DNA of 47,925 bases from a virus (Duplodnaviria > Heunggongvirae > Uroviricota > Caudoviricetes). Below are positions 1,580 to 43,440 of this stretch, in pieces (position 1 is the stretch's first letter; every line of letters starts with the position of its first letter). The stretch lies in the IMG/VR virus record IMGVR_UViG_3300045988_143263; one strand, 5' to 3'. Below the pieces are notes generated by a model. It saw nothing but the letters and a program-made list of their open reading frames with translations. It searched no databases and was not told where the DNA came from. The position numbers and the translations under genes were made by a program.

Positions 1580-1765
1580 TTATTATATCTACGATGGTAG
1601 GAAATCTTTTCCTATGTGGCAATAGAAATTTACTACATTGCGTATAAGACAAGTTTTCTATGTCTAATAGGAAATGATGTTTCTTACGTTTTATCGCGTT
1701 CTGATGGCTACTGTGTGCGTATTTATCGACGTTTATTGATAAGGCTCGCCCCTTCCTCCTGCAAA

Positions 1766-1926
1766 GCCCGGCCGTAGGCCTTATTTCGGCCTTATATAAA
1801 TTGATTTTGTATAGTTCGAAACGCGCCGTTTCGAAAAGGATGATCAGGCTGCTCCATGCCTCCGGCAAGTGCCGGAGGAGGTATATTTGAGCGTAGCGAC
1901 TCGAACCGGCGCGAGCTTTAGCTCGC
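1766..1926. repeat. cluster of GC-rich perfect palindromes
   Basis: ttcgaaacg-cgc-cgtttcgaa (1815..1835), cctccggca-ag-tgccggagg (1859..1878), gcgagc-ttta-gctcgc (1911..1926), plus ggcc-rich dyads at 1766..1800. Confidence 0.5.
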
Positions 1927-1959
1927 TGCAAGGGCGAACATATTCACAGGCAAAGCCTG

Positions 1960-2200
1960 CGTAAGTTAAATAAAGAAAGTCTTAATAAAAGAAAGTGATT
2001 TTGCATTTATTTGTTTAGTGCATCTATTATAAAAAACCATTTGCATATACATATCAAAACTGTGGATAACTTTATTAGCCGATGCCTGTAAAGGCGATAT
2101 TTTTGCTGTGTTCCGGTTTAGAGAAAATTAATTTAGATTGTTTTTTGAACAGATATTTTATTGCGACGTAGATAATCCTCCGGTAAAACCGGATTCATCA
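1960..2200. other. putative plasmid-type replication origin (AT-rich region with DnaA box) downstream of repA
   Basis: AT-rich tract 1960..2160 containing a perfect DnaA box TGTGGATAA at 2061..2069; lies 3' of the RepA gene as in IncFII oriR. Confidence 0.45.
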
Positions 2201-2210
2201 TTCAGGTGGG

Positions 2211-3059
2211 TTAATGTTGGAGTGATTTCCAGGTCTTTCTTAACCTGTTATAACGCTGCTCAACGAGGGATCGTAAATATGCAAGGTCAGCTCCAGGATA
2301 CATGCCATCAGCAAATTCCTGGCTAACCTCTCTAGTGATTTGATGACGAAGTTCGGCCTCTCCCTTTTCCCGAACAAGACGCGCAGCTCTCTCCGCTGCT
2401 TTCTGTTTTGCCTTTATCTCTCTGGCCGTCTTCCTCTGACGCCATACATTCTCCATCTGCTCCTGAATAACAATACGCTTATAATCAGCCTCCGTTATCG
2501 CTTTTTTAAGCCGTTCGCTATTCTTCGCATTGAAGTAATTAAGTTTCTGACTAACCGCACGTCTCCATGCTTGTTCAGTAATACCAACGGTTTCCAGCAG
2601 TTGATCACGAATCTCTATTTTCGCTGGCCAATACTGTTTATTCACCCGATCCCAGCGACGTTCATAATCAATAAAACCTAACGCTTTCAGTTGCGACAAC
2701 GCCCTTGTACAGCGCGTTATAGACTTGTTCCCAGCTTCGGATACGGTAGACAGGCCGCAAAAATCAGCCAACGCCTCAGCACTAGCCAGAACCCGCTTAG
2801 AAATGATGTTTACATGGTGCAAAATCGCAGCGATCACAGCATTAATCGCCCGACGACGATGCTCGTTTATCCGGCGCTTCCGCTCTGACGGTTGATTAAC
2901 GTAGAACGCAACCTCACACGTAAGATCACGCCCATTAATGCGCTGTAAAGCATCAGATAACACCAGCGGCAGCTTGTGCGTATGGTGCTTTGGAGGCTGG
3001 AACTCCGGCGACAAATTACAAACGTAAGCTGAACGTAGAGACGGCATTGGTCTATCCAT
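2211..3059 (-). CDS. repA: plasmid replication initiator RepA (IncFII RepA1-like)
   Basis: Segment GNKSITRCTRALSQLKALGFIDYE resembles the IncFII RepA1 core (…SITRATRAL…); start placed at internal MDRPMP (3059) rather than the ORF-track start at 3188, giving ~283 aa. Confidence 0.65.
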   Translation of the reverse strand: MDRPMPSLRSAYVCNLSPEFQPPKHHTHKLPLVLSDALQRINGRDLTCEVAFYVNQPSERKRRINEHRRRAINAVIAAILHHVNIISKRVLASAEALADFCGLSTVSEAGNKSITRCTRALSQLKALGFIDYERRWDRVNKQYWPAKIEIRDQLLETVGITEQAWRRAVSQKLNYFNAKNSERLKKAITEADYKRIVIQEQMENVWRQRKTAREIKAKQKAAERAARLVREKGEAELRHQITREVSQEFADGMYPGADLAYLRSLVEQRYNRLRKTWKSLQH

Positions 3060-3072
3060 ATGTTCGCTCTTG

Positions 3073-3185
3073 CGTCCACGGAAAACCAACGTATAATGGG
3101 AGTTGTCGAGGCGCCCATGGTTAATTGTTGGTTTTCCGTGGATGTCGCAAGAAGCCCGCAGATTTATCTGCGGGCTTTTTGTTTC
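3073..3185 (+). ncRNA. CopA-like antisense RNA in the repA leader (long imperfect hairpin plus terminator)
   Basis: Plus-strand inverted repeat 3074..3090 / 3127..3143 (16/17 bp), then a 12-bp perfect stem 3152..3177 followed by T5; antisense to the repA 5' region. Confidence 0.4.
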
Positions 3186-3369
3186 CATATCTGGTCACTT
3201 TCCAACCAGACACCCACAATCATAACCACGTTACGTGGTTTTAAGAGAACTCTACCACAACACTTTCGGTCATGCACGAAGTCTCTCACTGATCGAACGA
3301 TAATCCACCAGTAAAAGGATCTAAATTGGATCTCGTTTTGCGAGCATCATACTACTGGCCTAACTCCAG

Positions 3370-3924
3370 TCAATGATTCCCAGCCGGAAACCTGCGGTAA
3401 AGCGTGGATAAGGTAACATCGAAGATAATCGCTATCCGCTTACGTGAAACACCATTCGCAATAAGCCTTCCGATCTGTTCCCATTGCTCTGGTGCCAGCT
3501 TTGAGCGGCGTCCTCCTATCCTGCCGTTAGCCCTTGCCACCGCCAATCCTGCACGCGTTCTTTCAATCATATTTTCCCGCTCCATCTCTGCGACTGCACT
3601 CAGCATCGTGTAGGCAAAGCGGCCAATTGAAGTGCTAATTTTTATTCCTTCCGTAATCGAAATGAACTCAATGTTGTTTGATAAAAAATGGTTAAGTAAA
3701 TCAACAAGATGAATCAGAGAACGCCCCATTCGGTCCAGCTTCCAGACAATAACCGTATCGCCCGGTCGTAACACCTTCAGTAGCTTATCAAGTCCTGGTC
3801 GTTTTGATTTAGCACCGGATATTTTATCTTCAAAAATTCGGTCACATCCTGAACTCCTGAGCGCCTCCAGTTGTAATTCCAAATTCTGGTCAAAAGTTGA
3901 CACCCTCGCATAACCATATTGCAT
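3370..3924 (-). CDS. serine DNA invertase (Gin/Cin/Hin/Pin family)
   Basis: 184 aa; N-terminus MQYGYARVSTFDQNLELQ, resolvase catalytic domain and C-terminal HTH; adjacent to invertible tail-fibre segment. Confidence 0.85.
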   Translation of the reverse strand: MQYGYARVSTFDQNLELQLEALRSSGCDRIFEDKISGAKSKRPGLDKLLKVLRPGDTVIVWKLDRMGRSLIHLVDLLNHFLSNNIEFISITEGIKISTSIGRFAYTMLSAVAEMERENMIERTRAGLAVARANGRIGGRRSKLAPEQWEQIGRLIANGVSRKRIAIIFDVTLSTLYRRFPAGNH

Positions 3925-3988: not shown

Positions 3989-4014
3989 TTCGCAAAAACC
4001 TCGGTTTACAGGAA
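3989..4014. other. gix-like inversion crossover site (left)
   Basis: Reverse complement reads TTCCTGTAAACCGAGGTTTTTGCGAA, closely matching the Mu gix consensus TTCCTGTAAACCGAGGTTTTGGATAA. Confidence 0.7.
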
Positions 4015-4038
4015 ACGGTAAACAGGGCTGGTAACGCC

Positions 4039-4875
4039 GTGCAAAAAAATGGCGATACCTTGTCCGGTGGGCTTACTTTTGAAAATGACTCAATCCTTGC
4101 CTGGATTCGAAATACTGACTGGGCGAAGATTGGATTTAAAAATGATGCCGATGGTGACACTGATTCATACATGTGGTTTGAAACAGGCGACAACGGCAAT
4201 GAATATTTCAAATGGAGAAGCCGCCAGAGCACCACAACAAAAGACCTGATGACGCTGAAATGGGATGCACTAAATATTCTGGTAAATGCCGTCATTAATG
4301 GCAGTCTTGGAGTTGGTACGACGAATGCGTTAGGTGGTAGCTCTATTGTTCTTGGTGATAATGACACCGGATTTAAACAGAATGGAGACGGTATTCTGGA
4401 TGTTTATGCTAATAGTCAGCGTGTATTCCGCTTTCAGAATGGAGTGGCTATTGCTTTTAAAAATATTCAGGCCGGGGATGGTAAAAAATTCACGCTATCC
4501 AGCTCCAACACCTCCACAAAGAATGCAACGTTTAATTTATGGGGTGCTTCAACCCGTCCAGTAGTTGCAGAGTTAGGCGATGAGGCAGGATGGCATTTCT
4601 ATAGCCAGCGAAATACAGATAACTCGGTAATATTTTCTGTTAACGGTCAGATACAGCCCAGCAACTGGGGGAATTTTGATTCACGCTATGTAAAAGATGT
4701 TCGCCTGGGTACGCGTGTTGTTCAATTGATGGCGCGTGGTGGTCGTTATGAAAAAGCCGGACACGCAATTACCGGATTAAGAATCATTGGTGAAGTAGAT
4801 GGCGATGATGAAGCCATCTTCAGACCAATACAAAAATACATCAATGGCACATGGTATAACGTAGCACAGGTGTAA
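4039..4875 (+). CDS. alternative tail-fibre C-terminal variable segment (silent orientation; would fuse to the constant region after inversion)
   Basis: In-frame upstream peptide …LGLQETVN… matches the junction in the active fibre gene; C-terminus RPIQKYINGTWYNVAQV parallels the active fibre's [17 protein letters not shown]. Confidence 0.6.
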   Translation: MQKNGDTLSGGLTFENDSILAWIRNTDWAKIGFKNDADGDTDSYMWFETGDNGNEYFKWRSRQSTTTKDLMTLKWDALNILVNAVINGSLGVGTTNALGGSSIVLGDNDTGFKQNGDGILDVYANSQRVFRFQNGVAIAFKNIQAGDGKKFTLSSSNTSTKNATFNLWGASTRPVVAELGDEAGWHFYSQRNTDNSVIFSVNGQIQPSNWGNFDSRYVKDVRLGTRVVQLMARGGRYEKAGHAITGLRIIGEVDGDDEAIFRPIQKYINGTWYNVAQV

Positions 4876-4878
4876 ATT

Positions 4879-5406
4879 ATGCAGCATTTAAAAAATATTA
4901 AGTCAGGAAATCCAAAAACAAAAGAACAATATCAGCTAACAAAAAATTTTGATGTTATCTGGTTATGGTCCGAAGACGGTAAAAACTGGTATGAGGAAGT
5001 AAATAACTTTCAGGACGACACCATAAAGATTGTATACGACGAGAATAATATTATTGTCGCCATCACCAAAGATGCCTCCACGCTTAACCCTGAAGGCTAT
5101 AGCGTCGTTGAGATTCCAGATATAACAGCCAATCGTCGTGCCGATGATTCAGGGAAGTGGATGTTTAAGGACGGAACTGTGGTTAAGCGGATTTATACAG
5201 CAGACGAACAGCAACAACAGGCCGAATCACAAAAGGCCGTGTTGCTTTCTGAAGCTGAAAGCGTTATTCAGCCACTGGAACGTGCTGTCAGGCTGAATAT
5301 GGCGACGGATGAGGAACGCACACGACTGGAGTCATGGGAACGCTACAGCGTTCTGGTCAGCCGTGTGGATACAGCAAAGCCCGAATGGCCACAAAAGCCT
5401 GAGTAA
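4879..5406 (+). CDS. tail-fibre assembly protein (alternative copy, U'-like)
   Basis: 175 aa, paralogous to 5435..5974 ([18 protein letters not shown] vs [17 protein letters not shown]). Confidence 0.7.
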
Positions 5407-5411
5407 AAATT

Positions 5412-5430
5412 AAGGCCCAATATTGGGCCT
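5412..5430. terminator. bidirectional hairpin between convergent tail-fibre assembly genes
   Basis: aaggcccaatattgggcctt perfect hairpin between the stops at 5406 and 5435. Confidence 0.4.
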
Positions 5431-5434
5431 TCTC

Positions 5435-5974
5435 TCATTCTGGTTGTTCGGGAAACGTTACTGGCAGGCTGGAGGTGTCTGTAGATTCGACTTTCTGCGC
5501 ATAGAGCATCCACTCGGTTAATTTTTGTTTATTCTCGTCGGAAATGATGCCCAGCCGTAGCTGTGAGTCCCATAGCTGGGTTTTGTCCCTGACAAGTTGC
5601 AACAGGCTTTGTTTTTCATTTTCCGCTTGTTGTCGCTGCTCTTCCTCGGTATAAGTTCGCTTTATCACCGCGCCATCTTTGAACATCCAGTTACCCGAAA
5701 TATCAGCCCGTCTATTGGCTGTTATATCAGGCAACTCAACAACGCTTAAACCTTCTGGATTAATTACCGATACATCCTTATCAATAGCAACAATAATTCC
5801 CTCTGCTGTGTAAGCTAGCTTTATTGTGTCTTCCTGAAAGTTCTTTTGTTCTTCATACCAGTTTTTACCGTCTTCGGACCATAACCAGACAACGCCTGAG
5901 TTTTTAGTTAACAGGTACTGCTCTTTGGTTTTTGGATTGCCGGGTTTTATATTTTTTAAATGCATCATATTCAA
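5435..5974 (-). CDS. tail-fibre assembly protein (active orientation, U-like)
   Basis: 179 aa; overlaps the tail-fibre stop by 4 nt; paralogue of 4879..5406. Confidence 0.7.
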
Positions 5975-8466
5975 ACACTCGATATGTTATACCATGTACC
6001 ATTGATATTTTTTTGAATTGGTCTGTAATAAACGCCACCAATATTATCAGCAGAGTTAGAGCCTGTATCCTGAACGATAATCCCGGTATATGCGCAACCA
6101 GATGGAGCCTGATGTGTCCATGTTGTACCATTATTGGCTGGTTTATATGATGATGCACCACCAAGCCGGATATCCCGGACATAGCGTGAATCAAAATTAC
6201 CGTAATCTGATGGGTTAACACGTCCAGTAACATTTAATCCATGCCCAATTGAAACAGCACCATTGGCGTTGTTAATAGTAAGTGGTCTTAAATTATTCCA
6301 TGAGCCAAATCTGTCACCAGATGCAGTCAGCATAAAATAAGAATCTTTGCCGTCATTTCTGATAAAGAAACCATAATTGCCATAAGCAACGCGCAGACCA
6401 TTGGCATAGAGCGATGTAATTTCACCTCTTGAACGAAGACCATAAGCAGAGCTGAGTGATAATTCTTCCTGAGCATCAGTATTACCGGTCGCCCAGCGAA
6501 TTACCCCGCCCTGTACTGTTTCATGCCAGATAGTGTCTCCTTCTCCACCACGAAACTTTCTGAGATATTTTTTGCCGCCTCTGGTGCCGTAACATAAGGC
6601 CGTAGACATATAGGCATTCTGGCTTCCACTATCCTGATTAATAGTTCCAGACATAGAATCGCCATAACGGTTCCAGTCACGCCGCCAGCCAGGAGCATAG
6701 TTGTCCCCGTGGTTAATATAAGTAAATTGCGCGCTTGTAGCGCCCCCACCGCTTGATGTTGTTGGTGTGGTAATACGAATAGTCATTGCAGACTTTATTC
6801 CCATTACCTCAATAACAGCGCCAGCAAGATGAATATTGCCACAGCCCGTATCGGTAATAAGTTTATTATTGGCATATGACCAGGAGCCTTTGCACATCCA
6901 GTATGGATGATTAAAAGCGCCTACCGAATCAAGCCACTCAATAAACTGAGCTGTAGTCCAGTTTCCACCTTCTGTGCTGTAAGAGCCGCTAAAAGCACGA
7001 GCTGCACTAATATTTTTTGCAAAAGTGTCTTTACTTGGAATATCTGCGCCGTTCTGGTTTTTCTGCAACGCGCCAGAAGCCTGATTTACCGTTTCCTGCA
7101 AACCGAGGTATTCGATAACGGCGGCAACGGTCGATTTCGCAAGAATATCCCGCCCGACTTTTGTCAGAGTTGCCAGGCTGGCGACATCATTCCCCGTAAA
7201 ATACGGAAACCTGTCTGCCGCAGTAGCAAGCCCGGCCAGCGCCGTCAGGGTGGCATCTTTCGGTTGCTTACCCGCAAGCGCGTTAGTCATGGTGGTCGCA
7301 AAATTCGGGTCATTGCCCAACGCCGCAGCCAGCTCGTTCAGCGTATTCAGTGCGTCAGGCGACGAGTCCACGAGGGCAGCGATCGCAGCCATAACATAAG
7401 CCGTGCTTGCGATCTGAGTATTGTTAGTACCTTTTGGCGCAGTTGGTGTTGTTGGTGTTCCGGTCAGCGCCGGACTGTTCAGGGGCGCTTTCTTGTTCGT
7501 TTCATCCATTACCACCTTTACAGCTTTCGATGTCGCGGCCAGTGTTTCAGACGTGCTGTTGGTGGCACTACTGAGCTGAGTTATTCCCCTTACAGTCAGT
7601 GAAGCTACAGGCACATTTGTTATCTGCTCCCACGAATGCGTGTGATTGGACGGAGCCTTTCCGGCCGCAAGATCATACGCTGCCTTAACAGCCTTTGGTG
7701 TTGCTGCCAGCGTTTCAGACGTGCTGTTGGTGGCACTACTGAGCTGAACAATCCCTTTTCGCGCTGTGGTAGCGTCCTGTGCGGTGTATTTAGCGTTAGC
7801 CAGGTCATATGCTGCCTTAACAGCCTTAGGCGTCGCAGCAAGCGTTTCAGACGTGCTATTGGTGGCGCTGCTAAGTTGAACAAAGCCTTTTAAGGTTAAA
7901 GTTGCATCAGGATGATTACGTGATTGCTCATGTTTCACAATGGCTTGCTTAAGCCGCTTTGCTGAAACAGCAAGGGAATCATCTGTACCTGCATCAATTT
8001 CTTGTTCATTAGCAAATCTTGCCACCCCAACAACAGTTTCGGTCGCGGGAGGATTAATAAACTCAATATCACCAAATGTAATATTTTTAGTATCAAGAGT
8101 TTTAATTGCTATATCACTTGATATTAAAGCGATAGTAGATGATGCTTTATTTATTATTGCTTGTTCTTGTGAGTATACAGCAAACAACGTACCCTTATTC
8201 GTATACAATCCTATTGTATGGACAACGTACTCATCTTTACTATCATCCTTCGCTGTTACATGAATTGTATCAGGGGAAACAACTTTGCCACCTATTGTGG
8301 TAAGTCGTTTTATTTCGTTTGTTATATTTGTTTGTGAAGTTGACGTGACATAATATCTACTACCTAAACCAACAGAAACAATCTCAACTTTATTTGTTCC
8401 TGTTTTGTTGGCATTAACCAGCTCCTGACGCCCGGCGTCAGTCATCGTAAATAATAATTTACTCAC
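5971..8466 (-). CDS. tail fibre protein (constant N-terminal region ~7106..8466 plus invertible C-terminal region)
   Basis: 831 aa; three internal repeats of [30 protein letters not shown]; C-terminal receptor-binding module shared with the alternative segment. Confidence 0.8.
7093..7118. other. gix-like inversion crossover site (right, inside tail-fibre gene)
   Basis: TTCCTGCAAACCGAGGTATTCGATAA, inverted relative to the left site; coincides with the LGLQETVN junction of the fibre protein. Confidence 0.7.
7540..7880. repeat. intragenic ~132-bp tandem repeats (three 44-aa repeat units in tail fibre)
   Basis: Near-identical blocks cgtttcagacgtgctgttggtggcactactgagctga at ~7540, ~7708 and ~7840. 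Confidence 0.6.
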
Positions 8467-28179: not shown

Positions 28180-29559
28180 CTACTTAATCAACGGCCGGAA
28201 AGCCGCCAGCACATCATCAGATCGTCCGATTGTTGAACCACCAGGCAACGGCAACTCAAACTCAAAACGAACAGCTTTCTCCAGACTCGCCCAACTAAGG
28301 GAATCATCGTTAATGACGTGCAAATACCAGCTCTTACAGTTGAATATTGACCGCTTAATCCTGAAACCATGTACACGGCACAACTGCTTCACTTCATCAT
28401 CAGAGTGAAACTTCTGGTAAAACCAGTGCCCCTTCCGGTACAACGCGGTAAAACCGTTATGATCAATAAAATAAAGCCGGCTTTTGGAACTCGCCGCTTG
28501 TGTTTGCTTCAGGACTGTTTCCAGCTCTCCACGGCTACGACCAGAAAAGAATATTGACCCACCAGCTTTACACAGGCCTTTCAGAACCGTCAGAACGGAC
28601 CATTCAGCCTCGACACTATCGACCGAGTTCAAAACGCTATCGCAAATCACGTAGTCGTAACGCCCTCGCGTTTTTAAGTCGTCCACCAGCGTATCAATCA
28701 TCCGGTTTGTTGCGGTCCTATCCAGAGTGTTTCCAGCGCCCTTACGGCGAAAAAGCTCGAGATCATGCAGGTTATATCCCTTTGCCCTGAGCATTCGCGC
28801 GTAGTCTCCCTGCCCCGAACCAAAATCAATTCCTCTTGGCGTCTTGGCAATGATCGGGAGGATCAACGACTCATACAGATTTGATTTCAGGCTGCCACCA
28901 TTACGCAACCGCATAAGCTGCGCATACGTCTGGATATATGTTGTTTTCTCCAGATGAGAATACTCAAATACACCATAAGTTTTATTCAGATAACTTTGGT
29001 ATTTTTCCTTCTCAACATCAGGGATCACAAACACCGTTAGCGGTGTGCGCGTCATTTTCGCTGCTAATGCATACTGAGCACAGTGAATAACCTCACCAGA
29101 CTGAGTAGCAACACAACCACCCCACGGACCATACTTGATAACCAGTTCCGCTATGTTCTTTCGAACATATGCCATTTTCGCGCGCATATTGCCTGAGATC
29201 TGGCTTGCCGATACCTGAACAAAACCATGCTTATCTTCCAGACCGGACACCCTGCAACGCTCATCTCCGCTATCAAAATCCGTTCCGTTATGCAGTTGGT
29301 TAAACCGTACTTCATCGTATACCGTCGTTTCACAGGGCAACACATACACCGCAGCACGCGTTATTCCCAACTTACGTAGCGCCTTCGTCCTTTGGTGTCC
29401 CGCCACCAGCAAATCGCCGCGCACTATCAATGGCTTCACAAGCCCCAGCTCCCTGACGCTTTCCGCCAGCCTCGCAAGATCATCCTCACCGATAAAACGC
29501 GGGTTATATTCCGCGCCGCGTAGGTGCGTTATGTCGTAATTCAGGTGAAGCATCAGCAC
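28180..29559 (-). CDS. ParB-like N-terminal domain fused to a class I SAM-dependent methyltransferase (putative DNA methyltransferase)
   Basis: 459 aa; N-terminal ParB-like segment (…LIVRGDLLVAGHQR…) and methyltransferase motif I IDFGSGQGDY. Confidence 0.6.
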   Translation of the reverse strand: MLMLHLNYDITHLRGAEYNPRFIGEDDLARLAESVRELGLVKPLIVRGDLLVAGHQRTKALRKLGITRAAVYVLPCETTVYDEVRFNQLHNGTDFDSGDERCRVSGLEDKHGFVQVSASQISGNMRAKMAYVRKNIAELVIKYGPWGGCVATQSGEVIHCAQYALAAKMTRTPLTVFVIPDVEKEKYQSYLNKTYGVFEYSHLEKTTYIQTYAQLMRLRNGGSLKSNLYESLILPIIAKTPRGIDFGSGQGDYARMLRAKGYNLHDLELFRRKGAGNTLDRTATNRMIDTLVDDLKTRGRYDYVICDSVLNSVDSVEAEWSVLTVLKGLCKAGGSIFFSGRSRGELETVLKQTQAASSKSRLYFIDHNGFTALYRKGHWFYQKFHSDDEVKQLCRVHGFRIKRSIFNCKSWYLHVINDDSLSWASLEKAVRFEFELPLPGGSTIGRSDDVLAAFRPLIK

Positions 29560-32255: not shown

Positions 32256-32843
32256 CTATGACACTTGCCAGAGAGCATCATGCAACTGGATACCTCCGTT
32301 GCACTGGTTGCCCCAGCCATGCCAGCCATCAGGTAAATCACCGCGAGCAAACAGCTCAATACGAGGAACATCGCCTAACAGCTTTACCAGCTTGTCACGG
32401 ACCACATCAGGCTTCCGAGAATGCTCCAGACGAGGCGATGTAAACGACTGAATGATCCCCGCATCAAGACGTGTCGGTAGTTTGCCTTTCACTGCAAACA
32501 AGCAATCTTCACTGTTTGCACGAGTCATATGCCCCATCCCCATCACCAGCTTATCTGGTTGTCGGCTACCACATTTGTTCCATGTGAAGCCCTTCATGGT
32601 CATCAGCCTGAATCCCCATGCTTTCACCACCAGCAACGCTTCTTCTGGCTGAGTCGGAACCCACCACATGGCCAACAAACACGATTCAGGATTAGCAAGC
32701 TGCCAGACAGGAATACGAGCAATATCCTCAGCTTTCATCGTTGGATACTTAAAACCAGCGCCACGATTCCCATCCTTACACTTGTCTTTGTATTCCCAGG
32801 GGGGATCTGCATAAATCAGATTAAACAATGCAATTGCCTCCAT
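32256..32843 (-). CDS. MT-A70 family N6-adenine DNA methyltransferase
   Basis: 195 aa; catalytic DPPW motif (LIYADPPWEY). Confidence 0.75.
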   Translation of the reverse strand: MEAIALFNLIYADPPWEYKDKCKDGNRGAGFKYPTMKAEDIARIPVWQLANPESCLLAMWWVPTQPEEALLVVKAWGFRLMTMKGFTWNKCGSRQPDKLVMGMGHMTRANSEDCLFAVKGKLPTRLDAGIIQSFTSPRLEHSRKPDVVRDKLVKLLGDVPRIELFARGDLPDGWHGWGNQCNGGIQLHDALWQVS

Positions 32844-41220: not shown

Positions 41221-41877
41221 ATGAAAAGCAACGACGAGAACATCAAGAAAGAAATAGGTCTGCGCATTCAGACTCTACGGAAACAATCCGGCATGACTGC
41301 CGGAGATCTCCAGCAAGTCACTGGAATAGGCTTAAGCACCTTGCAGAACTATGAGGCCGGATTAAGACAACCATCTATACCTGCCATCAAGAAAATCGCG
41401 CACGCCCTGAAAGCATCAGCGCCTTATATCGCGTGCTTAACAGATAACCCGTTCCCACCCCAGAATACTAACGCTCCTGTTATTCCTGGGCTTGTAGCTA
41501 TAAAAAATGACATAGCATCGCACGCCGGAGAAAAGCCAGTGCTGGCGATAGAACAGGAGATTCTACGAAGCAAGAACATCAACCCATCGTCTCTGTCAGT
41601 TCTCCAGAGCAACGATGAGTTAATGTCACCAACAATATCCCCTGGCTCCCAAGTCCTGATTGATACAGACGATACAGAGATTCATGAGGGGATCTATGCC
41701 CTTGAAGACAGAAATGGCCTGGTTGTTTTGAGGCACTGTAGAGTCATACCGGGTGACAATGCTGTTATGCTGTCAACCGAAAGGGATGCTGAAATGAACA
41801 CTAAGCATCTGAATAACGAGGAATTTAAGCGTTATAAAGTTCTTGGCCGCGTAGTTAGTGTTGTCAACTGGTTATGA
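41221..41877 (+). CDS. CI-like prophage repressor (N-terminal HTH, C-terminal S24 LexA-type peptidase domain)
   Basis: 218 aa; HTH TAGDLQQVTGIGLSTLQNYEAG and C-terminal S24-like fold. Confidence 0.75.
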   Translation: MKSNDENIKKEIGLRIQTLRKQSGMTAGDLQQVTGIGLSTLQNYEAGLRQPSIPAIKKIAHALKASAPYIACLTDNPFPPQNTNAPVIPGLVAIKNDIASHAGEKPVLAIEQEILRSKNINPSSLSVLQSNDELMSPTISPGSQVLIDTDDTEIHEGIYALEDRNGLVVLRHCRVIPGDNAVMLSTERDAEMNTKHLNNEEFKRYKVLGRVVSVVNWL

Positions 41878-42475: not shown

Positions 42476-42494
42476 ACACATGGAGTCTCGACAA

Positions 42495-43148
42495 ATGACT
42501 ATCTCTGTAGGTATTTTCAACGGAAAAGGCGGCGTAACCAAATCAACAATTGCCCGTGCTTTAGCAGTTGCTTATGCAAAGGCTGGCTGGAATGTATGCC
42601 TGATCGATATGGATGTGCTTAACGGAACGGTAACACGTTGGGTACAACGCAGAATGGCCAACAATATCGAACCAGCAATCGCGGCGCAGCCGTGCGGCAC
42701 ACCATCACAAGTCCAGAAAATCATCGAATCAGAAGTATACGACCTGGTTATCGTCGATGGCGGTGCCTACGCATCTGAATCAGTACCGAAGCTCTCTGAA
42801 TTTCTGGATATGGTTATTTTGCCAACCAGATTCTCTACCGATGACCTGGAAACCACCGTTAACACAGCTCACGGCATCGTTAAAAAGGGTGTACCAATCA
42901 AGAAAATTTGCATGGTGTTTTCCGGCGCGGCTGAAAACGAAGCTGACTATATTGAAGCCCAAGAGTACCTGGCTAATACGCCATACTTTGTTGTCGATAA
43001 GTACATTCCCCACAAGCCAGCTCTGAGCAAAGCTCAGGATAAGGGCTTAAGCCTCATTGAGTGCTCATACGTTGCGCCACGCAAAAAGGCAGACGACGTT
43101 ATTCAGGGGATTATCAACCAGCTTGAGGCTCTGACTACTGCCGCGTAA
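42495..43148 (+). CDS. parA: ParA-family partition ATPase
   Basis: Deviant Walker A box NGKGGVTKST ten residues from the chosen start; start set at the second ATG (GGAG RBS). Confidence 0.8.
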   Translation: MTISVGIFNGKGGVTKSTIARALAVAYAKAGWNVCLIDMDVLNGTVTRWVQRRMANNIEPAIAAQPCGTPSQVQKIIESEVYDLVIVDGGAYASESVPKLSEFLDMVILPTRFSTDDLETTVNTAHGIVKKGVPIKKICMVFSGAAENEADYIEAQEYLANTPYFVVDKYIPHKPALSKAQDKGLSLIECSYVAPRKKADDVIQGIINQLEALTTAA

Positions 43149-43191: not shown

Positions 43192-43440
43192 ATGGCCGCA
43201 CCATCAAAACCACCAAAGAAGAACAGCAAAGGCGTACCGCCATCGATCGAACAACCGCAGGTTTTCGACCCGACTGAAACGCCAACCAGAACCAAATCAG
43301 GTGGGGCACAAATGGCGTTTAACGTCGACCCTGAATTTAAACGCGAGTACAAAACGTTCGCCAGCTCAATGGATATGTCATTGAAAGAAGTGCTGACAAA
43401 GTCTTTTGAGTTACTCAAGGCTCAATACAACCAGAAGTAA
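43192..43440 (+). CDS. ParG-like ribbon-helix-helix centromere-binding protein
   Basis: 82 aa; disordered basic N-terminus and C-terminal RHH-like segment MAFNVDPEFKREYKTFASSMDMSLKEVL; directly downstream of parA. Confidence 0.5.
   Translation: MAAPSKPPKKNSKGVPPSIEQPQVFDPTETPTRTKSGGAQMAFNVDPEFKREYKTFASSMDMSLKEVLTKSFELLKAQYNQK

Follow-up and report, generated by a model that had tools for sequence, protein, structure and literature searches.

We analysed a stretch of DNA of 47,925 nucleotides (nt) from a virus of the Caudoviricetes (IMG/VR record IMGVR_UViG_3300045988_143263; "the window" hereafter), which is a complete E. coli phage-plasmid, for the control and replication of its initiator gene repA (2211..3047, minus strand). 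The explanation that we find best overall, and hold with moderate confidence, is that the region of about 1740-3373 is a plasmid-maintenance replicon in which an antisense RNA would operate a switch on repA. As proposed, a promoter at 3373..3346 would give a repA mRNA with a structured leader of about 290 nt, and from a second promoter within the leader hairpin (-10 at 3092-3097) a countertranscript of about 80 nt would be made on the plus strand. Pairing would begin between the 5′ tail of this RNA and the apical loop of the mRNA hairpin, both of which are invariant, and would then spread into the 5′ arm of the hairpin, after which the released 3′ arm would pair with an arm-mimicking sequence over the repA start codons and turn RepA translation off. 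In the absence of the antisense RNA the hairpin would hold its 3′ arm and the repA start site would stay open, so that antisense RNA dosage would set the copy number, with RepA acting on the origin just downstream of its gene. An earlier note on this DNA had read 1940-3190 as an IncFII-type module with CopA-like antisense control, maintained as a plasmid prophage. That interpretation is right in kind, as this is a theta replicon of plasmid type, with an initiator of the IncFII_repA superfamily and probable antisense control, on a plasmid prophage, and wrong in the family and in the anatomy of the RNA. The module is also larger than the note had it, since the repA promoter lies at 3373..3346 and the hairpins flanking the origin reach to about 1740.

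A set of 24 distinct leader variants was used for comparison, gathered from pattern scans of viral and metagenome contigs and from contigs encoding homologues; three GC-rich soil contigs from the metagenome scan (L028, L034 and L035) were chance matches and were excluded. The variants fall in three lineages, namely A, which is window-like (RepA 100% identical), B (RepA 81-85%) and C (RepA about 60%). On the mRNA the order of elements is the same in all three, that is, promoter, complement of the terminator hairpin, long hairpin and start region. The long hairpin of the repA mRNA (3074..3143, minus strand; 5′ arm 3143..3126, 3′ arm 3091..3074) and the plus-strand terminator beside it are both present as the earlier note had described. 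Folded together (3060-3190, plus strand) they reach -69.5 kcal/mol with z = -9.3, and none of 200 shuffles was as stable; the hairpin alone has z = -6.5. It is formed by 18-20 base pairs (bp) between 3074-3091 and 3126-3143 and carries an apical mini-hairpin with an invariant loop. All 24 variants retain it. For lineages A and B taken together 95.6% of the cells are paired, and two pairs are changed on both sides between them (G-C to A-U and A-U to U-A), while in lineage C the arms have entirely different sequences that still pair.

The intrinsic terminator of the predicted antisense RNA (3147..3186, plus strand; core 3154-3162/3167-3175, T-run 3176-3184) has a folding energy of -26.9 kcal/mol on its own (z = -8.3), and three pairs of its stem show compensatory changes (18 sequences). 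No plus-strand open reading frame (ORF) ends here, and there is no gene that needs this terminator. In lineage C the T-run follows the stem on the plus strand only, and in lineages A and B the minus strand reads UUCUUG after the stem. A simple scan did not list the terminator because its T-run pairs with the upstream A-run. On aligning all three lineages by MAFFT and folding by RNAalifold, the terminator was the only structure recovered, because the first stem-loop of the predicted RNA (SL1) does not align across lineages; the support for SL1 therefore comes from the folds of each lineage and from a count within A and B that is not significant (see below).

The predicted antisense promoter lies inside the hairpin (3070..3097, plus strand), with the -35 element TTGCGT at 3070-3075, a spacer of 16 bp and the -10 element TATAAT at 3092-3097. 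TATAAT is invariant, with TTGC[G/A]T 16-18 bp upstream, in 24 of 24 variants from the three lineages. The simplest reading is a transcript predicted to start near 3104 and to end at the terminator, that is, a countertranscript of about 80 nt (3104..3184, plus strand) made of a 5′ tail UGUCGA, SL1 (about 3110-3146) and the terminator as second stem-loop (SL2). This three-part fold, with the 5′ tail free, is the same in every lineage, and SL1 is 97.5% paired in A and B with one compensatory pair. Since the antisense promoter lies inside the hairpin, the long hairpin is probably not in the antisense RNA, which as predicted contains only one of its arms, the complement of the 5′ arm. This departs from the earlier note, which had made the long hairpin part of the antisense RNA and had expected 90-110 nt in place of the roughly 80 nt that the conserved promoter predicts. 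A conserved promoter and an intrinsic terminator opposite a rep leader are the general marks of a countertranscript and both are found here, with a weak -35. From these sequence features we consider it probable that an antisense RNA gene exists.

It could be argued that there is no antisense RNA, and that the hairpin and terminator end the transcription of an invertase gene, form an inverted repeat bound by a protein, or act in cis as a translational structure. On the strand of repA, an invertase gene (3924..3370) does lie just upstream; the inverted repeat is moreover perfect, and the antisense -35 is weak. But the relative L004 lacks the invertase gene and yet has all the leader elements, and the T-run is on the plus strand, in lineage C solely there. 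Also, TATAAT and the box next to it are invariant while the arms have wholly changed, a pattern that a protein operator formed of the arms does not readily explain, and the repA promoter is upstream of the terminator in all lineages, where a full stop would silence repA. We regard this explanation as improbable.

On the mRNA the box GGAGTTGTCGAGGC (3098..3112) makes up the apical loop of the hairpin, and on the antisense RNA it makes up the 5′ tail. Its sequence is identical in A, B and C although the stems on either side have diverged, and it is unpaired in both minimum-energy folds. As part of an invariant apical box of 21 nt it reads GCCTCGACAACTCC[C/G]ATTATA on the mRNA strand, and TATAAT followed by GGAGTTGTCGAGGC on the plus strand. 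The RNA 5′ tail is thereby complementary to the unpaired apical loop, and the box is a plausible nucleation site for the two RNAs. Two known systems are similar in this respect, IS10 RNA-IN/RNA-OUT, which controls a transposase, and hok/sok, which controls a toxin; in these a single-stranded 5′ end nucleates on a loop or open region and the pairing then propagates. Both are otherwise unrelated to the window, and the resemblance that we infer is mechanistic only.

The apical loop of SL1 holds hypervariable, indel-rich repeats of CAA type (3121..3132), which also form an internal loop of the mRNA hairpin. At 3121-3124 there are 7 alleles among 12 near-identical leaders of lineage A, one variant having a separate 5-nt insertion at 3132, and the other 250 nt of these leaders have only about 7 columns with single-nucleotide polymorphisms. 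The variable stretch is in the SL1 loop in lineages B and C as well. Such variation fits the diversification of a specificity (incompatibility) loop. Searching the window against Rfam gave only sub-threshold matches (Thr_leader, CsrC and similar), which we rejected as chance matches of the kind that a hairpin with a terminator behind it will generally give; the leader cassette matches no Rfam family.

The start region CAUAUGGAUAGACCAAUG (3043..3064, minus strand) covers both in-frame AUGs, mimics the 5′ arm of the hairpin and can pair with the 3′ arm. When the antisense target was masked in folding, the freed 3′ arm CGUUGGUUUUCCGUGG paired with CAUAUGGAUAGACCAAUG, and the probability of the start region being unpaired was 0.22 in the window, in place of 0.57 before masking; the corresponding values for lineage B are 0.08-0.39 in place of 0.55-0.62. 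Each sub-lineage uses different sequences for this pairing of 3′ arm and start region, and at one position (U in A, A in B) the 5′ arm and its mimic in the start region are matched. On this modelling we propose sequestration of the start site only tentatively, with a chance that we place somewhat below even. The idea that antisense RNA on one strand of a helix frees the partner strand for an inhibitory helix is shared with the Gram-positive plasmids pT181 and pIP501/pAMbeta1, where attenuation is driven by a countertranscript and the alternative helix is a transcription terminator. Unlike in these plasmids, the helix in the window would cover the translation start, no attenuator is visible and the Rep protein is unrelated.

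Several observations weigh against the antisense-controlled switch or its parts. The antisense -35 agrees with the consensus at only 3 of 6 positions, because of which the simple scan did not list the antisense promoter either. For SL1, the covariation within A and B does not reach significance, as 143 of 500 shuffles score at least as high. When compared with shuffled start regions, the duplex of 3′ arm and start region gave p = 0.03, 0.07, 0.01 and 0.18 in A and B, and this range of 0.01-0.18 is only modestly better than chance; in lineage C, where another ORF follows the hairpin, the duplex is not significant against shuffles. At -31 kcal/mol the free mRNA hairpin is highly stable, so that its invasion would have to be co-transcriptional or begin at the loop. 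Neutral slippage of repeats in an unconstrained SL1 loop would be an equally possible source of the loop alleles.

The antisense RNA may be real and act in another way, either through RNase III cleavage and decay of the leader duplex or by enhancing the termination of repA transcription at the two-way hairpin 3154-3175. The complementarity is perfect over about 80 nt, the minus-strand UUCUUG after the stem in A and B is a possible weak terminator, and the modest statistics of the switch speak for such a mode as well. But the minus strand of lineage C has no U-tract after the stem, so mRNA termination is not conserved, and a start region that mimics the 5′ arm is found again, in another sequence each time, in the window, in L003 and in L004. 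We take action of this kind to be rather unlikely, with a chance clearly smaller than that of start-site sequestration but well above that of there being no antisense RNA.

The protein itself can be placed at the level of the superfamily. The longer ORF of repA (3188..2211, minus strand) matches PF02387 (IncFII_repA) with E = 1.3e-43 and 149.8 bits (cut-off 22.9), and this match begins at residue 52. The best NCBIfam model is NF040977 (RepA_IncFII_LM), for which RepA scores 232 bits (cut-off 70) with the whole profile covered, while for TIGR03474, the equivalog of IncFII RepA1, the 79 bits obtained are below the cut-off of 446.9. For reference we used a true IncFII locus, L007, which has copB, CopA (RF00042, 98.2 bits), tap and repA. 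By BLASTP, the RepA of the window has 39% identity to RepA1 of this locus over a core of 105 amino acids (aa) only, in which KSITRCTRAL aligns with LSITRATRAL. The SITR.TRAL core named in the earlier note is present, and RepA is a member of the IncFII_repA superfamily, which takes in the initiators of IncFII, the I-complex and IncL/M, and not of IncFII proper.

These results bear on the reading as a genuine IncFII system (R1/R100), where CopA blocks the translation of Tap, to which repA is coupled, and CopB represses the repA promoter. The window is similar to IncFII in its PF02387 initiator with the SITR.TRAL core, in the order of control region, repA and origin, in the antisense-type layout upstream of repA with a countertranscript (predicted here) complementary to the leader, and in an origin downstream of repA with a DnaA box 140-180 bp after the gene and then an AT-rich tract and GC-rich hairpins, in parallel order. 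This agreement with the oriR layout is one of architecture only, as blastn gave no sequence similarity of the window to the control region or origin of IncFII. The covariance model of CopA (RF00042) has no match at E<=1 over 6 kb, nor at E<=10 over 411 nt, whereas the IncFII control scores as given above. On searching CopB and Tap of L007 by tblastn, only chance matches elsewhere in the window were obtained (E>1), and a short ORF ending at the repA start was not found in the window. Also, for the two carrier plasmids whose records were inspected, MOB-suite assigned no replicon type. A difference from IncFII is that the RNA predicted here has its terminator hairpin as a separate element and would be transcribed from the apex of the mRNA hairpin. 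IncFII is thus already refuted at the level of membership, and we give this explanation the least credence of all those considered here. What holds of the IncFII-type and CopA-like assignment is the superfamily (PF02387, NF040977), the layout of the origin and that of a countertranscript; what does not is IncFII proper and the CopA family.

The start codon of repA bears on how the leader is read. RepA relatives at 81-85% and at about 60% identity are 277 aa long and start at the methionine equivalent to ATG 3047, because of which we place the start of RepA at 3047 (278 aa) and not at 3188; a second in-frame ATG is at 3059. Therefore the 5′ 140 nt of the RefSeq ORF are leader and not coding. 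The RefSeq (PGAP) protein of 325-326 aa begins at ATG 3188, so that its reading frame crosses both the terminator hairpin and the predicted antisense gene, and this long form is carried by a protein cluster of 525 members. We consider the RefSeq start to be unlikely.

We also weighed the control of the I-complex and IncL-M plasmids (IncB pMU720, ColIb-P9, pMU604), in which a single-hairpin RNAI blocks a leader peptide and a pseudoknot between a loop and the ribosome-binding site that activates repA translation. In its favour, the best protein model is RepA_IncFII_LM. Two relatives do match the corresponding family PK-repBA (RF01089) above its cut-off of 45, namely L005 (49.3 bits, RepA 63% identical) and L008 (56.7 bits, RepA 37%), and in L005 (2863-3003) a 15-aa leader peptide, MRTFQPLFTAISGGQ, overlaps the GTG start of repA. 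In the window, ATG 3118 opens an ORF through the 3′ arm of the hairpin. But neither PK-repBA nor PK-repZ (RF01087) matches the window even at E<=10. The ORF from 3118 was rejected as a leader peptide. It has no Shine-Dalgarno sequence, its end is not conserved, its length being 83 aa in the window but only 32 aa in both L004 and L017, and in lineage C its start codon is missing in spite of the invariant box. No conserved loop-complementary sequence is found near the start site; a candidate pseudoknot, for which the apical loop is complementary to GGAGUU/UUGUCG within codons of repA in the window, does not recur in lineage B and was discarded as a coincidence. The window differs from the I-complex in lacking a conserved leader peptide, the elements of the pseudoknot and the pair UUGGCG/CGCCAA, and control of this kind appears about as improbable as the absence of an antisense RNA. 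The comparison shows different control cassettes on related RepA proteins and a conserved origin core in L005 and the window, which points to a modular exchange of control cassettes. The neighbours of repA in L005 include conjugation-type genes (TrbC).

Upstream of the leader, the probable promoter of the repA mRNA (3346..3373, minus strand) reads TTGACT-16-TATGAT, agrees with the consensus at 10 of 12 positions and has a predicted start near 3339. TTGAC[T/G]-N16-TA..AT is kept at a fixed distance in lineages A, B and C despite a diverged spacer. A cluster of GATC sites lies just downstream (3291..3332; sites 3329-3332, 3318-3321 and 3291-3294), of which 3318-3321 and 3329-3332 are exactly 11 bp apart at about +8 to +21 of the predicted promoter. 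Pairs or triplets of GATC at 11-bp steps are kept in all three lineages, lineage C having three in a row. This conserved spacing suggests control of repA transcription by Dam and SeqA. Two further structures are present in the minimum-energy leader fold, a second leader hairpin (3190-3210, minus strand), the loop of which is variable and differs between near-identical relatives at 3197, 3198 and 3202, and a perfect dyad AACCACG-N3-CGTGGTT (3224-3240, minus strand). A candidate second promoter around this dyad does not have a conserved -10. In lineage C (L006 2516-3004; also L018-L024 and L039) the hairpin is separated from repA by an ORF of 162 aa with weak winged-helix matches, the stop of which overlaps the ATG of repA (ATGA); here the hairpin would control a two-gene operon.

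Downstream of repA, the DnaA box and AT-rich tract named in the earlier note are present and conserved in relatives. The box TTATCCACA (2061..2069, minus strand) is 142 bp after the repA stop, to be compared with 176 bp in the IncFII locus L007, and is the only perfect DnaA box in the window. One perfect box is not rare by chance (at least one in 34 of 100 shuffles), and its weight comes from its position, which is the same in lineages A, B and C and in L005. Next to it lies the AT-rich origin core (1962..2060), the presumed unwinding region, with three TGCAT motifs (2002-2006, 2019-2023 and 2042-2046) and two direct repeats of 15 nt (1966-1980 and 1982-1996); GC content is 22-25% across 1960-2079. 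Nowhere downstream of repA is conservation higher than in this AT-rich block, and this holds for relatives with as little as 60% RepA identity. Five relatives retain the hairpin TCCGGTTTTACCGGA (2176..2200, minus strand) just after the repA stop, with changes that are compensatory (in L006, CCAG/CTGG); we infer for it a role such as that of a terminator or a CIS-like element. On the other side of the core, a cluster of GC-rich hairpins (1740..1961) includes perfect inverted repeats at 1815-1835 and 1859-1878. The hairpin GCGAGC-TAAA-GCTCGC covaries in relatives (GCGGAC/GTCCGC, GCGGCG/CGCCGC and GCGACG/CGTCGC), and the cluster may hold single-strand initiation (priming) sites; RepA would presumably bind, and priming take place, within this origin. 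The whole set of post-stop hairpin, DnaA box, TGCAT motifs, AT-rich block and GC-rich hairpins is also kept in L005, which has I-complex-type control.

The region 1600-3400 is 95-99.7% identical to 60 circular, non-mobilizable plasmids of Escherichia, Salmonella and Klebsiella, mostly of 46-52 kb, and has 99% identity to three phage genomes, the Yersinia phages vB_YpM_39, 41 and 44. The records of circular plasmids with this match number 63. The genes for tail, head and other structural proteins are common to the window, the vB_YpM phages and induced E. coli phages. Among 5,426 complete E. coli genomes the replicon module is present in 71 (about 1.3%) at 82 places, all of which are plasmids and none chromosomal. 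Because all 82 places are plasmid-borne and phage records of 99% identity exist, the element is a plasmid prophage, as the earlier note had concluded, occurring both as a free circular replicon and in the form of an infectious phage, and not integrated. A family member of 48.5 kb is carried by the quality-control strain E. coli ATCC 25922 (plasmid NZ_CP117232.1). Among species-representative genomes no RepA relatives were found, and a 27-nt box had no match there. The plasmid pSLy3 was rejected as a relative of the group, as it belongs to the unrelated SSU5 supergroup. A description of this replicon was not found in the searchable literature, including by searches aimed at the family.

Of the parA/parG cassette in the earlier note, a ParA-like ATPase gene is present (42480-43148), while the ORF of 82 aa that follows it (43192-43440) is in a ParG-like position and has no Pfam match at E<=0.01. 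Other genes of the window include a toxin-antitoxin pair at 102-754 (a HigB/RelE-like toxin of the Gp49 family at 401-754 and a helix-turn-helix antitoxin at 102-401), a ParB_N-methyltransferase fusion (28180-29559), an MT-A70 methyltransferase (32256-32843) and a CI-like repressor with HTH_3 and Peptidase_S24 domains (41221-41877). The invertase at 3924..3370 is of Cin/Hin type and adjoins an invertible tail-fibre segment (3990-8466). Of the two alternative fibre C-termini in this segment, one is at 4039-4875 on the plus strand and the other is the 3′ part of 5971-8466 on the minus strand; two genes for tail-fibre assembly (4879-5406 and 5435-5974) are oriented in opposite directions. A cix-like site lies near 3994-4019; for this reason, and as L004 has no invertase, the leader hairpin was rejected as a crossover site of the invertase.

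The probable antisense control belongs to no described antisense family. A further and more doubtful step, which we consider possible but less likely than start-site sequestration, would be to see here an undescribed class of control cassette, having an antisense RNA from the hairpin apex, nucleation of tail on loop, a covered start codon, a slippage-prone incompatibility "barcode" loop and Dam/SeqA gating after replication, and being exchangeable with cassettes of I-complex type. The findings overturn nothing known on antisense control. Yet the family is common, being present in about 1.3% of complete E. coli genomes, ATCC 25922 included, and also in Salmonella and Klebsiella, and public transcriptome data for ATCC 25922 could show the predicted antisense RNA. 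A defined replicon, origin and control RNA would give a typing marker and fill a gap in typing, and it may be noted that RefSeq mostly annotates a RepA start that runs through the control RNA gene. The variants of the SL1 loop could explain incompatibility or coexistence among family members, and the family as a whole is a compact example of the swapping of control cassettes on one backbone of RepA and origin.

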